Shown here: piece after piece, positions 476 through 8,712 of the stretch
Layout: every line of letters starts with the position of its first letter
Numbering within the stretch: position 1 is the stretch's first letter
Source: Puniceicoccales bacterium
GTDB taxonomy: Bacteria > Verrucomicrobiota > Verrucomicrobiia > Opitutales > JAIRLM01
Direction: 5' to 3'
Length of the DNA stretch: 64,000 nt
NCBI GenBank assembly: GCA_031268315.1
Contig: JAIRXK010000014.1
Coordinates: 1,919 to 65,918 of the forward strand
Translations under genes and position numbers: made by a program
The notes under the pieces: model-generated
The model's database searches: none
What the model was told of the DNA's origin: nothing
What the model saw: only the letters and a program-made list of their open reading frames with translations

Positions 476-727
476 CTATTGCGCCTGGGATGATTTTTGG
501 TTCCATCGGATATAAAACACGCTTGTAAGCATGAGCAAGATAGCACCCGGTGTAAATATGAGTGCTTTTGCTGTAGCTACGCCAACCATTGCTGCAATGG
601 TTGGTAAAATTCCAGTTCCAAATGCGCCAAAGAGTAGGAGTAAATCCGCTAGGACAGCTATCATTGTAGCGATGGTGAAGACGATGAATAAACACTTATT
701 CTGCTTCACTTTTTCCATCAAAGCCAC
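476..727 (-). CDS. ORF fragment: C-terminal hydrophobic anchor of the decayed paralog
   Basis: ALMEKVKQNKCLFIVFTIATMIAVLADLLLLFGAFGTGILPTIAAMVGVATAKALIFTPGAILLMLTSVFYIRW is near-identical to the last ~85 aa of the giant protein. Confidence 0.6.
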   Translation of the reverse strand: MALMEKVKQNKCLFIVFTIATMIAVLADLLLLFGAFGTGILPTIAAMVGVATAKALIFTPGAILLMLTSVFYIRWNQKSSQAQ

Positions 728-1224
728 TGGGTTCTCATCGATCTTTCTATTCAGATGTTGAATCTCGGGCGAAATCTTGGCCTGGTCTAGGGTTTGATCG
801 GGCAGATTCTTCTTACTTGGGCTTTTTGGGGCCTGTTCCTTGTTCTCGATCGTAGGTTCTTGTTCTTGATTGAGTTGACTGGGTTTTTCTAAATCGGACT
901 CTCTCCTGCTTTTGGGCTGATTAGTCTTTTTACATTTCTCAAATCACTCTTACTAAGGAATATGCATTTAATAACACTAAAGTTGTCATTCCAGATGATA
1001 AGTGCGTCGTCTGCGCAAATTTGCGATTCGTGAAAAATGGAGAATTCGGCCTTTGTTGCCTGCAAAAAATTCTTTGAAAAGAAAAATGGCTTAAAAAAAG
1101 AATTTTCGAAGAAATCTGCAAATTGATTTTCATTTTCTGCTAAGTCTTTACCGCTTTCTTCAGATTTAAGAAAATGTTCTTTGAGACTTTTGGAAGCATC
1201 TTTTGTTTTAATATTTTCATTGGG

Positions 1225-2088
1225 TCAATTTTTCCCCCAATACTCATAGGCGTTGCAGGAAGTGGATTTGCTTTGGTCTAACTCTCCAAATAGAGGAGTG
1301 AAATCGCGCGGGGTATTATCATTGATTTCATTTCTAGTTTTCATGGATGCATTAAACTCAGCTGAATGTTTCATTTCGGATTCTTTACTTTGCATTAGCG
1401 TATCGATTCCCGTATCTTTGCCTTTCGCTCCTTTTTTTTGAATCAATCCATTGCATCTAAAAGTGTCATTGCCATCGCTTTTGGACGGGGCTAGGAATTT
1501 CTCGTCCGCGGATATATTCCCTACGATTTCATCCGCATATGCTTTTATGGACTCGATGTCAGCTAGCATTTTGCAACATTCTTTCTCCGAAAAGGTGTTC
1601 GTTAATCTATTTACTATTTCATTCACCCTTTGCATTTTTGCACTAAAGTCGTTTTTTAAAAAAGCATGGGCCGATTTCCAGCACTGCAAATATTTCCACC
1701 TCTCAAGTTCAAATAAAATTTTTTCTGTGAGAAATTCTGCAAATTTTTCTCTTAGTAAATTTTGATTTTTGCATTTATTCCATTCTATATCATCCATTAG
1801 CCATTTTTGAATTGTTTCTACTATTAATCTGTGAAGTTGTGTTTGCGCAGACTGTGCGCGCTGTTTGATGGTATCTTTTGCGCTATTACTTGCCAAGCAT
1901 TTAATGATATTGATCGATAATTCCTTCTGTTGAGTTTGGTTATAGAAATTAGTGCCAGTACTTTCATTTTTCCCCATTGGGACTAATTCTTCCAATGCGT
2001 CCTTAATAACCAATAAATCCATTTTTTCCCCGGACGCGAGGATTTGACCAAATGTATCGATTCTCATATTGTTTAAATTTGCCATCAT
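1225..2088 (-). CDS. ORF fragment of decayed giant-protein paralog
   Basis: MDLLVIKDALEELVPMGKNESTGTNFY...TIKQRAQSAQTQLHRLIVETIQKWL aligns with giant KMDLIVCKDALREIDPMIENESTSSNFY...TIKQRAQAIQIQLHGLIVEAIKKWL. It is in the same frame as 2095..2397, separated only by a TAA. Confidence 0.7.
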   Translation of the reverse strand: MMANLNNMRIDTFGQILASGEKMDLLVIKDALEELVPMGKNESTGTNFYNQTQQKELSINIIKCLASNSAKDTIKQRAQSAQTQLHRLIVETIQKWLMDDIEWNKCKNQNLLREKFAEFLTEKILFELERWKYLQCWKSAHAFLKNDFSAKMQRVNEIVNRLTNTFSEKECCKMLADIESIKAYADEIVGNISADEKFLAPSKSDGNDTFRCNGLIQKKGAKGKDTGIDTLMQSKESEMKHSAEFNASMKTRNEINDNTPRDFTPLFGELDQSKSTSCNAYEYWGKN

Positions 2089-2094
2089 AAGGCC

Positions 2095-2397
2095 TTAACC
2101 CCTAACGTTGAGGTTCAATTTTGCATAGTACTGCGCATCGAGAAATGTGAAAATTCTTGATGTATTCCCTTGCTGCTGACTTGCCGCATGATCATGAATT
2201 TTTATTGAGGAATTGTGATTCCCGCTTTTGATAATACTATTAACTTCCGCTATGACAAATGTTTTCAACCGTGAATCATACCATTCAACGTGAGAAAACT
2301 TCAACTTTGACGAATTAATAAATTTAGCTATATTATAAATTGTGTCGAGAATTTCTTGGGAAGCAAGGAAATGTCCACTGTCGGCAATAAAGCGCAA
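2095..2397 (-). CDS. ORF fragment of decayed giant-protein paralog
   Basis: RFIADSGHFLASQEILDTIYNIAKFINSSKLKFSHVEWYDSRLKTFVIAEV aligns with giant RIIVDSGCFLISQETRDIIRDIAEFIRSSELDVTHIEWYDPRVRAFAIAEV. Confidence 0.65.
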   Translation of the reverse strand: MRFIADSGHFLASQEILDTIYNIAKFINSSKLKFSHVEWYDSRLKTFVIAEVNSIIKSGNHNSSIKIHDHAASQQQGNTSRIFTFLDAQYYAKLNLNVRG

Positions 2398-2491
2398 ATT
2401 TTTCGAGCCAATGCTATTGCACCAGTTTGGCCCTCAGGGGTTAATACATGTTGGGAAACGGCATCCAAAGTATCGTAGGGAACATAATATT

Positions 2492-6814: not shown

Positions 6815-7391
6815 TTGTAATAAGACAGCTATTAATTGCAGTCATTAATTTCGCACTTTCTTCAACATTCAATGCTGGAAGGTCGGCATGATTAAATGGT
6901 ATGCTTTGAATAATTTTCATCATTTTATTTGCGAAAAACTTGAAATATGTTGCATCTTTTTGAGACAGCAAAAGCAGCGATTCTAATTCCTGCGTTACGT
7001 ATGAAAAATCACCATTTTTAATTTTTTGAAAATTCGTTGGCGTCAGTTGGCAAAATTTAAATTCAGTAGAGTTTGGTTCAGTAGAGTTTGGCGCAGTGAA
7101 TTTCTCATATAAAGTTTTTAATGACTGTATGTGTTGCGCATTTGACTTAATATCATAATCCTTTTTACCTAAGTGCTTGCTCTTGAAATAATCGGATCCG
7201 AGTGGCGTTCCATACATAATTTCATTTAGTTTTGTATATTCATTTATTTCATTATTTAATTCGCTGAAATCATTCGTCAATTTCTCAAAAAAATCTTCTG
7301 CGAGATAGGGTATGCTTAGATTATACTTATTTAGTTTTCTCTTAAGTGATAATATTCTTCCACCTAGTTGTCTTATCGCGGGATCAAGCAC
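6735..7391 (-). CDS. ORF fragment of decayed giant-protein paralog
   Basis: NFQKIKNGDFSYVTQELESLL...KMMKIIQSIPFNHADL aligns with giant NFQDIKNGNFTYIVNELSSLL...KMMKIIQNIPFNHEGL. Confidence 0.7.
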   Translation of the reverse strand: MLDPAIRQLGGRILSLKRKLNKYNLSIPYLAEDFFEKLTNDFSELNNEINEYTKLNEIMYGTPLGSDYFKSKHLGKKDYDIKSNAQHIQSLKTLYEKFTAPNSTEPNSTEFKFCQLTPTNFQKIKNGDFSYVTQELESLLLLSQKDATYFKFFANKMMKIIQSIPFNHADLPALNVEESAKLMTAINSCLITIDTHCSAYNCFCEECTSKETKKTLTP

Positions 7392-7402
7392 GCTTAAATT
7401 AT

Positions 7403-7741
7403 CTATATTTTTTCAATTTCCCCATCCTTAATCATATAAAAATATTGAGCTAGAGTAAATAATCGTGATGCTATCTCATAGCATTTAAGTGTCATGGTGT
7501 TGATTCGCTTTTCAGTGTCGAGTTTCAAGATATTGTTTGAAGCAATTGTGCTATTTCCATTTTGATTAATTTCATTAAGGCGATCAAGGAGAATAACTTC
7601 CTCTACACCTTCAACGCTTCTCATTACGCAATTTCCTGATCGTTGCGCAGATTTAGGGGAGATCTTCTTCCACGGCGTATTCGGATCATTTTGTAAATTC
7701 TCATTGCCATTTTTTTGCATAGACGTATACGTGTTCCACAT
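7403..7741 (-). CDS. ORF fragment of decayed giant-protein paralog (Cys-motif block)
   Basis: PWKKISPKSAQRSGNCVMRSVEGVEEVILLD aligns with giant PWNIISFKAAQKSGNCVMRSVEGLAEVILLD. Confidence 0.7.
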   Translation of the reverse strand: MWNTYTSMQKNGNENLQNDPNTPWKKISPKSAQRSGNCVMRSVEGVEEVILLDRLNEINQNGNSTIASNNILKLDTEKRINTMTLKCYEIASRLFTLAQYFYMIKDGEIEKI

Positions 7742-7833
7742 ATTAGTATAGTAATTTATTGCTTCATCAAGTGATTTTCTTCTTAGAGCTGTAACAGCAT
7801 TAGATGCCAGAAATTTTTTAGTATCGGCTTCGC

Positions 7834-8712
7834 TTAAGTATAGACAACGACCAAATGTGGTAGTGTGCGGTAGCTAGAATTAATAATCGGCTCTGGCTTT
7901 CCATCACCAAAATTTACCTCTTGGATGCGCCAATTGTCTGTGCCGATTTTTTTAATATACGCATATGTCGAATGTCCGCCGATTTGATGGGAGTACCCAG
8001 AACGAAGCATAAAGCGGTCTTTTAATTCGACGCTTTCCGTTACCATTCGGCAAGTTTCGCAAAAAATGCTACCATTAATTATTTCGTTACTTAGATCATC
8101 TGGGCAATTATTTGCAAGACCGAACAGAGGCTTTTTATGTATTTTTGATATTTCAATTTTAAACTTATTATCTTCGATAGTGCACTTTACTTCGTTGCCA
8201 TAAAGCATTCTTGCTTTATTCTCCGCCATTTTGCGTATTTTCTCATCGAAATATTTAATTGCATTTTGCGCTAAATTAGTATCTTTTCCAAGAAGATTTT
8301 CTAATGACTCTATGACGTGGCAGTCGTCCTTTGTATTTACCATGCCAGCGATTAGGGAAGGAATTTTATCGCATATGCTATTAATAATTATAATATTTTC
8401 ATAAAAACTTTGGTCGTTATCAATATCAAATATGTCAAATACGCAATCGAATGCCTTGCCGTATTCTTCTTTAAAATATCCGCTGTCTCTTACATATTTT
8501 AGCATCTGCGCTCCAACAGGCGCTCCTTCTCGGGTGATATATCCGTTCCAACCACTCTTGTGAATAAATTCCGGCATGAGCATGTGGAGCATGAATCTTT
8601 TGCACACGTCGGGTTTAACTACATCTGAAAGCAGTTTTTGCTGAGACAGCGGTGTCGCAGCGGTGGTTAACTTTACTGAAGTATTCAACAGATCTAAATT
8701 CAACGAATTCAC
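7834..8712 (-). CDS. ORF fragment (N-terminal module) of decayed giant-protein paralog
   Basis: FMLHMLMPEFIHKSGWNGY...GGHSTYAYIKKIGTDNWRIQEVNFGDGKP aligns with giant FALQMLIPESIRGSSFDGY...SGHQTFAYVKKIKDLWCVQEINFGAGMP. Confidence 0.75.
   Translation of the reverse strand: MNSLNLDLLNTSVKLTTAATPLSQQKLLSDVVKPDVCKRFMLHMLMPEFIHKSGWNGYITREGAPVGAQMLKYVRDSGYFKEEYGKAFDCVFDIFDIDNDQSFYENIIIINSICDKIPSLIAGMVNTKDDCHVIESLENLLGKDTNLAQNAIKYFDEKIRKMAENKARMLYGNEVKCTIEDNKFKIEISKIHKKPLFGLANNCPDDLSNEIINGSIFCETCRMVTESVELKDRFMLRSGYSHQIGGHSTYAYIKKIGTDNWRIQEVNFGDGKPEPIINSSYRTLPHLVVVYT

Follow-up and report, generated by a model that had tools for sequence, protein, structure and literature searches.

The question raised by this locus is whether a run of broken open reading frames (ORFs) beside a very large intact gene is a dead gene, and how that gene and its neighbour are related. 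The locus lies in a 64,000-nucleotide (nt) stretch of DNA (the window) from a 'Puniceicoccales bacterium' metagenome-assembled genome (MAG; Verrucomicrobiota), in which the intact giant gene occupies 9024-23849 on the minus strand and the broken region 476-8712 on the same strand, the latter being ORF limits with homology detectable over 485-8601/8613. The earlier note on this DNA had described the region as a tandem, collinear but heavily decayed second copy of the giant gene. We put at about 0.9 the probability that 476-8712 is a genuine pseudogene, the remains of an old and once full-length member of a giant gene family. Judging from its sequence, the decayed locus is most likely no longer a source of working giant protein.

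The intact gene, an ORF of 4,941 codons (4,941 amino acids (aa), 14.8 kb), was the sequence with which the decayed copy was compared. It encodes a protein identical to GenBank LBI69_01765 (4,937 aa, start at 23837), here P0001, and residue numbers follow P0001, being the ORF numbering minus 4. The intact gene has neither a frameshift nor a stop over its whole length.

Collinearity and lesions of the decayed copy

A tblastn search of the window with the 4,941-aa product returned, besides the self-match, seven collinear high-scoring segment pairs on the minus strand running from 8613 to 485 with identities of 38-53%, the E-values given for the decayed copy being 2e-102, 8e-30, 0.0, 7e-98 and 1e-38. 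This confirmed, far beyond chance, that the decayed copy is collinear with the adjacent giant gene, its homology to a functional gene being kept in the same order over most of its length. The fragments themselves number approximately 13 rather than the eleven counted earlier. The lesions were mapped with a purpose-written frameshift-aware protein-to-DNA dynamic-programming alignment comprising twelve blocks, all on the minus strand. On this map the copy carries at least seven small frame changes (7861, 7409, 6783, 6485, 3888, 3767 and 3372, with that at 6485 weak), four in-frame stops (TAA 5592-5594, TGA 4131-4133, TAA 2095-2097 and a stop at 1225-1227) and three large deletions (approximately 100, 123 and 1,637 aa), apart from the approximately 610 aa missing where an insertion sequence (IS) replaces the Walker A/B core, lesions which together would disable the gene. 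The multiple frame changes of the earlier note are therefore real, with the exact series of frames differing from that of the alignment, and the stops at 5592 and 1225 were absent from its list.

Following the gene from its 5′ end, block 1 (7861-8601) covers giant aa 38-288 at 42% identity, spanning the helical N-terminus and the first portion of the protease-like domain, and breaks off at 7861 with a 1-nt frameshift lying outside any homopolymer. Block 2 (7409-7861; aa 289-435, 46%) keeps the family-invariant cysteine motif QRSGNCVMRSVEG and is followed by the frame change at 7409, while block 3 (6783-7406; aa 436-644, 45%) runs to the frame change at 6783. Block 4 (6393-6784) consists of aa 645-746 (6784-6485, 59%) and a weak continuation over aa 747-777 (6485-6393), with the possible frame change at 6485 falling between aa 746 and 747. 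At the junction 6357-6392, 36 nt stand in place of approximately 100 aa (giant 778-878), such that the loss previously given as about 150 aa between 6311 and 6431 stands, with its size and place revised to approximately 100-130 aa at 6356-6393/6485. Block 5 (3888-6356; aa 879-1686, 56%) is the longest, carrying the TAA at 5592-5594 and the TGA at 4131-4133 before the frame change at 3888. In the alignment this TGA faces a Trp of the intact protein (DMILWF versus DMIA*F), as had been noticed, consistent with a TGG to TGA change. Blocks 6 and 7 (3372-3886), covering aa 1687-1726 (3886-3767) and aa 1727-1868 (3767-3372) on either side of the frame change at 3767, are the last homology ahead of the IS.

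Beyond block 7, aa ~1879-2641 are missing at one junction, made up of the ~610 aa at the IS and a 123-aa deletion (aa 2519-2641) past a weak 29-aa island (2406-2492; aa 2490-2518, the end of the core). Save for this island, which is 28% identical to P0001 and 47-53% identical over 34-36 aa to the paralogues P0002 and P0003, the NTPase core is absent from the decayed locus. Block 8 (910-2403; aa 2642-3146, 42-45%) contains the TAA at 2095-2097, present where it had been reported, and the stop at 1225-1227, and in it the family-invariant motif FTFLDAGHSVGSDPAMK reads FTFLDAQYYAKLN--LN. The invariant LDAGHSVGSD motif is destroyed in the pseudogene and the Walker A/B region is absent. At the junction 902-909 approximately 1,637 aa (giant 3147-4783) are missing, close to the loss of about 1,700 aa expected at this place, leaving a remnant of the C-terminal linker and two-helix membrane hairpin (485-901; aa 4784-4932).

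The position of a TGA opposite a Trp recalls the recoding of UGA to Trp (genetic code 4) described in two related endosymbionts, the verrucomicrobial Organicella and Pinguicoccus (PMC8204192). Recoding is ruled out here, with TGA terminating 7 of 31 long ORFs and no in-frame TGA in the 4,941-codon neighbour. Given these terminations, the standard code applies and TGA 4131-4133 is a nonsense codon.

The earlier proposal that an IS marks the place where the NTPase core was lost is also borne out. A degenerate element of 890 bp (2492-3381, minus), probably of the IS982 family, occupies the place of giant aa ~1879-2489, a stretch that would hold both the Walker A (GSGKS) and the Walker B (DEIH) motif, and has imperfect 32-nt terminal inverted repeats (81%; 2492-2523 and 3350-3381) exactly bordering the non-homologous segment. 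The transposase is split into minus-strand ORF fragments of 96 aa (3027-3317) and 99 aa (2646-2945). The 99-aa fragment matches two profiles, Pfam DDE_Tnp_1_3 (E=1.9e-11) and, in part only, NCBIfam IS982 (E=8.6e-13), the second at 48.4 bits where the cut-off is 130 and over positions 109-191 of the 243 in the profile, while the 96-aa fragment, from a broken ORF, matches annotated IS982-family transposases (tblastn E=3e-6). The DDE transposase fragments and terminal inverted repeats are shared with IS982-family elements, which are typically approximately 1 kb in length, whereas this element is shorter, has a split and incomplete transposase, shows no target-site duplication or direct repeat in its flanks and has no second copy in the window. 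Since insertion by itself deletes no sequence, the missing target-site duplication suggests that an IS-associated deletion removed the ~610 aa of core.

Whole-gene comparison of non-synonymous with synonymous substitution (dN/dS) was set aside because synonymous sites are saturated at ~68% nt identity, with invariant-column and Tajima relative-rate tests used in its place. At columns invariant in the other six sequences the pseudogene differs at 15.2%, compared with 5.1-7.0% for P0001, P0002 and P0003, and relative-rate tests against P0001 gave p = 2e-7 to 3e-4. By both measures constraint on the decayed copy is relaxed compared with its intact relatives.

Age of the copy and alternative readings

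At least six intact paralogues of 3,605-5,221 aa are encoded in the same MAG (locus tags LBI69_*), together amounting to ~79 kb of coding sequence. These are the neighbour LBI69_01765 (4,937 aa), LBI69_02565 (5,221 aa), LBI69_02635 (3,886 aa), LBI69_04390 (3,605 aa), LBI69_00775 (4,807 aa) and LBI69_00295 (4,738 aa). With so many intact paralogues beside one dead copy, birth and death, the term used in the earlier note, is a fair description of the family. Measured over 902 ungapped columns, the identity of the decayed copy is 56% with its neighbour P0001, 54% with P0003, which lies on another contig, and 49% with P0002, with P0001 and P0003 themselves 62% identical. Neighbour-joining placed the pseudogene inside the LBI69 clade, as sister to the pair (P0001, P0003) in 133 of 200 bootstraps and to P0001 alone in only 5. 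On these identity levels and this placement outside the pair, the decayed copy is best read as an old family member and not as a recent duplicate of the gene next to it. A 'tandem second copy' is therefore apt for an adjacent, same-strand and collinear gene, and inapt where it would imply recent duplication.

Only over the last 239 nt is the adjacent gene the closest relative. This 3′ tract (486-724, minus), inside an 83-aa ORF (476-727), is 88.3% nt-identical to the 3′ end of the neighbour (9043-9281), compared with ~68% in the other alignable blocks. In protein (73 columns) the decayed copy and P0001 are 82% identical, P0001 and P0003 55%, and the decayed copy and P0003 47%, reversing the topology of the gene body. 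The tract is likely to reflect a later event of gene conversion or recombination between the tandem neighbours.

Several observations weigh against reading the region as a plainly dead gene. Five of the seven small frame changes fall at or next to A or T runs of five or six, and taken alone a few of these could be assembly or consensus errors in the MAG. The acceleration of the pseudogene is only marginal relative to P0003 (relative-rate p = 0.02-0.06). Long ORFs remain (453, 292, 287 and 239 aa), the 453-aa piece (4131-5492, minus) is annotated in GenBank as the coding sequence LBI69_01740 'hypothetical protein', and individual fragments may, on their sequence, be expressed. Finally, over the 80 codons of the 3′ tract the ratio of non-synonymous to synonymous differences per site (pN/pS) is ~0.35 (14 non-synonymous codon differences over 182 sites, and 12 synonymous ones over 58), compatible with continuing selection on the 83-aa hairpin ORF. 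The first of these points, and the origin of the sequence as a MAG contig, would be in keeping with an artefact in which the second copy is intact and its lesions are metagenome-assembly errors or a chimeric strain consensus. Such an artefact is extremely improbable, because base-calling errors cannot create stops by substitution, deletions on the kilobase scale or an IS, and the region holds four such stops, three deletions of 100-1,637 aa, an 890-bp IS with inverted repeats in place of the catalytic core, and amino-acid substitutions that degrade invariant motifs. Moreover homopolymers of at least five nt are as dense in the neighbour (178, 12.0 per kb) as in the decayed copy (91, 11.2 per kb), yet the 14.8 kb of the neighbour are free of frameshifts, which argues that the lesions are not sequencing errors. 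MEGAHIT-style contig names in related MAGs also suggest short reads, which carry few indel errors, and the same method was presumably used here. A literal second copy, duplicated in tandem from the neighbour not long ago and then decaying very rapidly, would account for two adjacent, collinear genes on the same strand, for the 88% identity at the 3′ end, and for the neighbour being the best match for three of the four blocks compared. It is nevertheless highly improbable, with overall identities to the neighbour of 38-56% aa and ~68% nt, as deep as those between dispersed paralogues, with the neighbour pairing with P0003 rather than with the pseudogene, and with the fourth block (aa 2642-3146) being closer to P0003 and P0002.

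The remaining points bear on whether the giant gene is dead while one or more of its ORFs are expressed or under selection as stand-alone proteins, the candidates being the 292-aa N-terminal piece, the 453-aa LBI69_01740 and the 83-aa membrane-hairpin ORF. The persistence of long ORFs, the GenBank entry and the conserved hairpin would all fit with this, as would read-through transcription, which is possible with no terminator-like site seen between the locus and the giant gene in a terminator scan; counts in the promoter and terminator scan of the locus were near chance and uninformative. We regard survival of this kind as improbable. It is lesions, and not recognisable starts of genes, that set the ORF boundaries, the blocks show relaxed constraint throughout, and no stand-alone homologue of any fragment was found, a protein search with the 453-aa ORF returning only itself. 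The pN/pS value includes the branch of the live neighbour and rests on 26 differing codons, which are too few to tell whether the 83-aa ORF is still constrained. Similarly, an intact orthologue of the dead copy was sought with a 995-aa conceptual translation (two X residues) that matched nothing, a weak negative as the same search missed even known paralogues of 51% identity in that database, and the 453-aa search is equally weak evidence on this point.

A genuine old pseudogene is thus the reading preferred here. The events of its history can be read from the alignment and their order we infer as follows. The copy would at first have been a working paralogue, diverging from its relatives down to ~50% identity, after which insertion of the IS982-family element, with loss of ~610 aa of NTPase core at the site, would have inactivated it. 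Further deletions (~100, 123 and 1,637 aa), at least seven small indels and four nonsense mutations would then have accumulated while the IS itself decayed, and at some point the 3′ end would have recombined with that of the intact neighbour. For annotation, LBI69_01740 and a second fragment entry, the 100-aa ORF at 2095-2397 (minus) which is 99% identical to the separate protein-library entry P0036, should be merged into one pseudogene.

The giant family and its DUF3638 relatives

The pseudogene itself is an ordinary phenomenon and the giant family to which it belongs is of more interest. Members have an N-terminal protease-like domain with one invariant cysteine followed by a long middle region, then a divergent DUF3638-type P-loop (Walker A/DExH) NTPase core, a variable helical tail, a low-complexity linker and a C-terminal two-helix membrane hairpin. 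The hairpin is present in 6/6 intact LBI69 paralogues and, by reading of their sequences, in several distant members. No Pfam hit above threshold was obtained for the giant protein or its parts, the best match being DUF3638 (PF12340) with 12.3 bits against a gathering cut-off of 31 (E=0.1), over a segment that has RLRPDQIE at one end and Walker A (LMGSGKSKAL) at the other. The family member P0015 does pass the DUF3638 gathering score (36.7 versus 31 bits). A hidden Markov model (HMM) built on the 900-aa core was run against a set of 1.84 billion representative proteins and matched 86 of them at E <= 1e-3 and 30 at <= 1e-30, most of them 2,000-5,200 aa long with the core at residue ~1,900-2,800, and the named strong matches were proteins of Puniceicoccales MAGs (LBI69, LBQ23 and LBJ94). 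Weaker matches of ~3,000 aa have Pfam DUF3638 on the matched region (E 1e-14 to 1e-18), one of them with ResIII in addition, and distant matches score 53-65 bits against DUF3638. The core profile matches these DUF3638-positive proteins over the same region at E 7.5e-25 to 3e-11, which amounts to homology at the level of profiles, and on this basis the family can be placed as a divergent branch of the DUF3638 giant NTPases.

Searches of the PDB by sequence, using the N-terminal 800 aa and the core, gave no match. An AlphaFold2 model of residues 30-470 (window 22428-23750, minus), built from 12 sequences, reached a mean predicted local distance difference test score (pLDDT) of 74.6 and a predicted template-modelling score (pTM) of 0.79, and in this model the invariant cysteine (QRSGNC; Cys366) is predicted to lie at the N-terminus of a long helix following a beta-sheet. 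The only significant Foldseek matches of the model were to the N-termini of Klosneuvirinae proteins (E 4e-6 to 3e-4, probability 1.00), from Hyperionvirus, Hokovirus and Harvfovirus, annotated as DUF3638 domain-containing or as 'ubiquitinyl hydrolase 1'. Because both the core profile and the modelled N-terminal fold match DUF3638 giant proteins, the order of N-terminal domain followed by NTPase core appears to be shared with the DUF3638 proteins of eukaryotes and giant viruses. Of these, some are automatically annotated in UniProt as 'ubiquitinyl hydrolase 1', while the protein encoded in the window differs in scoring only 12.3 bits, and the bacterial proteins in being longer, with many ending in the two-helix membrane hairpin. 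Among structures in the PDB the best fold match of the N-terminal model was the cysteine-protease-like domain of the Legionella effector AnkD (PDB 7ew8), at a level that is not significant (E 0.035-0.06; chain B probability 0.98 over 234 columns; template-modelling score ~0.29) and with no sequence similarity found, leaving no more than a hint of a thiol-protease-like fold. No papers testing the function of DUF3638 or DUF3645 were found in a literature search.

Among known systems the locus comes closest to the pseudogenes that arise in multi-copy families of surface or effector genes where host-associated bacteria have active IS elements. The earlier note had likened the locus to the large cytotoxin genes of Chlamydia muridarum and their fragmented remnants in C. 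trachomatis. The likeness holds for the evolutionary pattern, with a very large gene lying beside a collinear relative that is split into many ORFs, with adjacent copies on the same strand, with breaks made by frameshifts, stops and deletions, and with a pattern that fits lineage-specific expansion followed by loss. It does not hold for sequence, the giant protein having no Pfam hit above threshold and hence none to toxin or glycosyltransferase families, including those of the clostridial and chlamydial cytotoxins, while its core is related to DUF3638; neither Pfam nor the PDB sequence search revealed homology to a toxin glycosyltransferase or other toxin domain. In contrast to Chlamydia, the live and dead copies here occur in one genome and are old paralogues (~50% aa identity) rather than orthologues in different species. 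The parallel is accordingly one of analogy in evolutionary pattern only, and the term 'effector-like' applied to the giant protein may be appropriate as a conjecture on its role.

In the genomes of GTDB, patterns specific to the LBI69 paralogues gave no match, while family-wide patterns detected eight loci in six termite-gut Puniceicoccales MAGs (Kf353, Po218, Gx481, Ncb351, Gsp477 and Nm470), all of them distant (24-29% identity) and each a single intact giant ORF with no adjacent remnant. Three of these loci (L003, L007 and L008) were found in one MAG, Gx481_bin188. No relative was detected in a scan of JGI metagenomes. Apart from relatives at the level of DUF3638, the family has so far been found only in Puniceicoccales genome bins. 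Kf353 derives from a gut metagenome of Kalotermes flavicollis (PMC11707648), and verrucomicrobial endosymbionts of termite-gut protists are known as the 'Nucleococcus cluster' (PMC8204192). The LBI69 MAG is suspected to belong among such termite-gut protist symbionts.

Variation in architecture was seen among the members in other Puniceicoccales MAGs. Some carry extra C-terminal modules, and P0007 and P0012 contain long internal repeats. P0015 shows a weak DSP-phosphatase match and both P0015 and P0020 carry the motif HCHGGLGRSPS (CX5R), while of these two only P0015 has the OTU-like motif GNCFF.

The locus records turnover of a gene family in a bacterium for which the relatives so far found are from termite guts, the genes of 3,600-5,200 aa both expanding and decaying within one bacterium, which is the pattern expected of genes under shifting, host-related selection. 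A host-directed, membrane-anchored role for the family is plausible. As the family links bacterial proteins to the uncharacterised DUF3638 giants of eukaryotes and giant viruses, it is the intact neighbour rather than the pseudogene that is the worthwhile target for further work. A bolder reading, which we consider unlikely, is that the dead copy is a casualty of a fast-turning, host-directed arsenal of giant proteins, from a family shared with eukaryotes and giant viruses, and that it still exchanges sequence with its neighbour, as the 3′ tract 88% identical to that gene would suggest. Were this so, a whole module of protease-like domain and DUF3638 NTPase would have been transferred between domains of life, the hairpin could anchor each copy in a host or bacterial membrane, and the pseudogene would act as a gene-conversion reservoir, comparable in principle to the silent cassettes of antigenic variation.

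Surroundings of the locus

Directly upstream of the start of the giant gene, at 24101-25185 on the minus strand, lie genes for tRNA-Pro(GGG), a small signal recognition particle RNA (24188-24286) and tRNA-Ser(GCT). The part of the window holding the giant gene and its dead relative (1-24000) has a GC content of 0.32-0.40 per 2 kb, compared with mostly 0.40-0.53 over 28000-64000, and this AT-rich compositional island could reflect a foreign origin or different constraints. Beyond the 3′ end of the pseudogene a 102-aa ORF on the plus strand (73-381) corresponds to no more than the final third of enzymes of the hormone-sensitive-lipase/acetyl-esterase family (positions 208-297 of the 300 in the profile), with a stop codon upstream of it inside the window. 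This ORF may be a further truncated gene, or else one that is frameshifted at the edge of the window.

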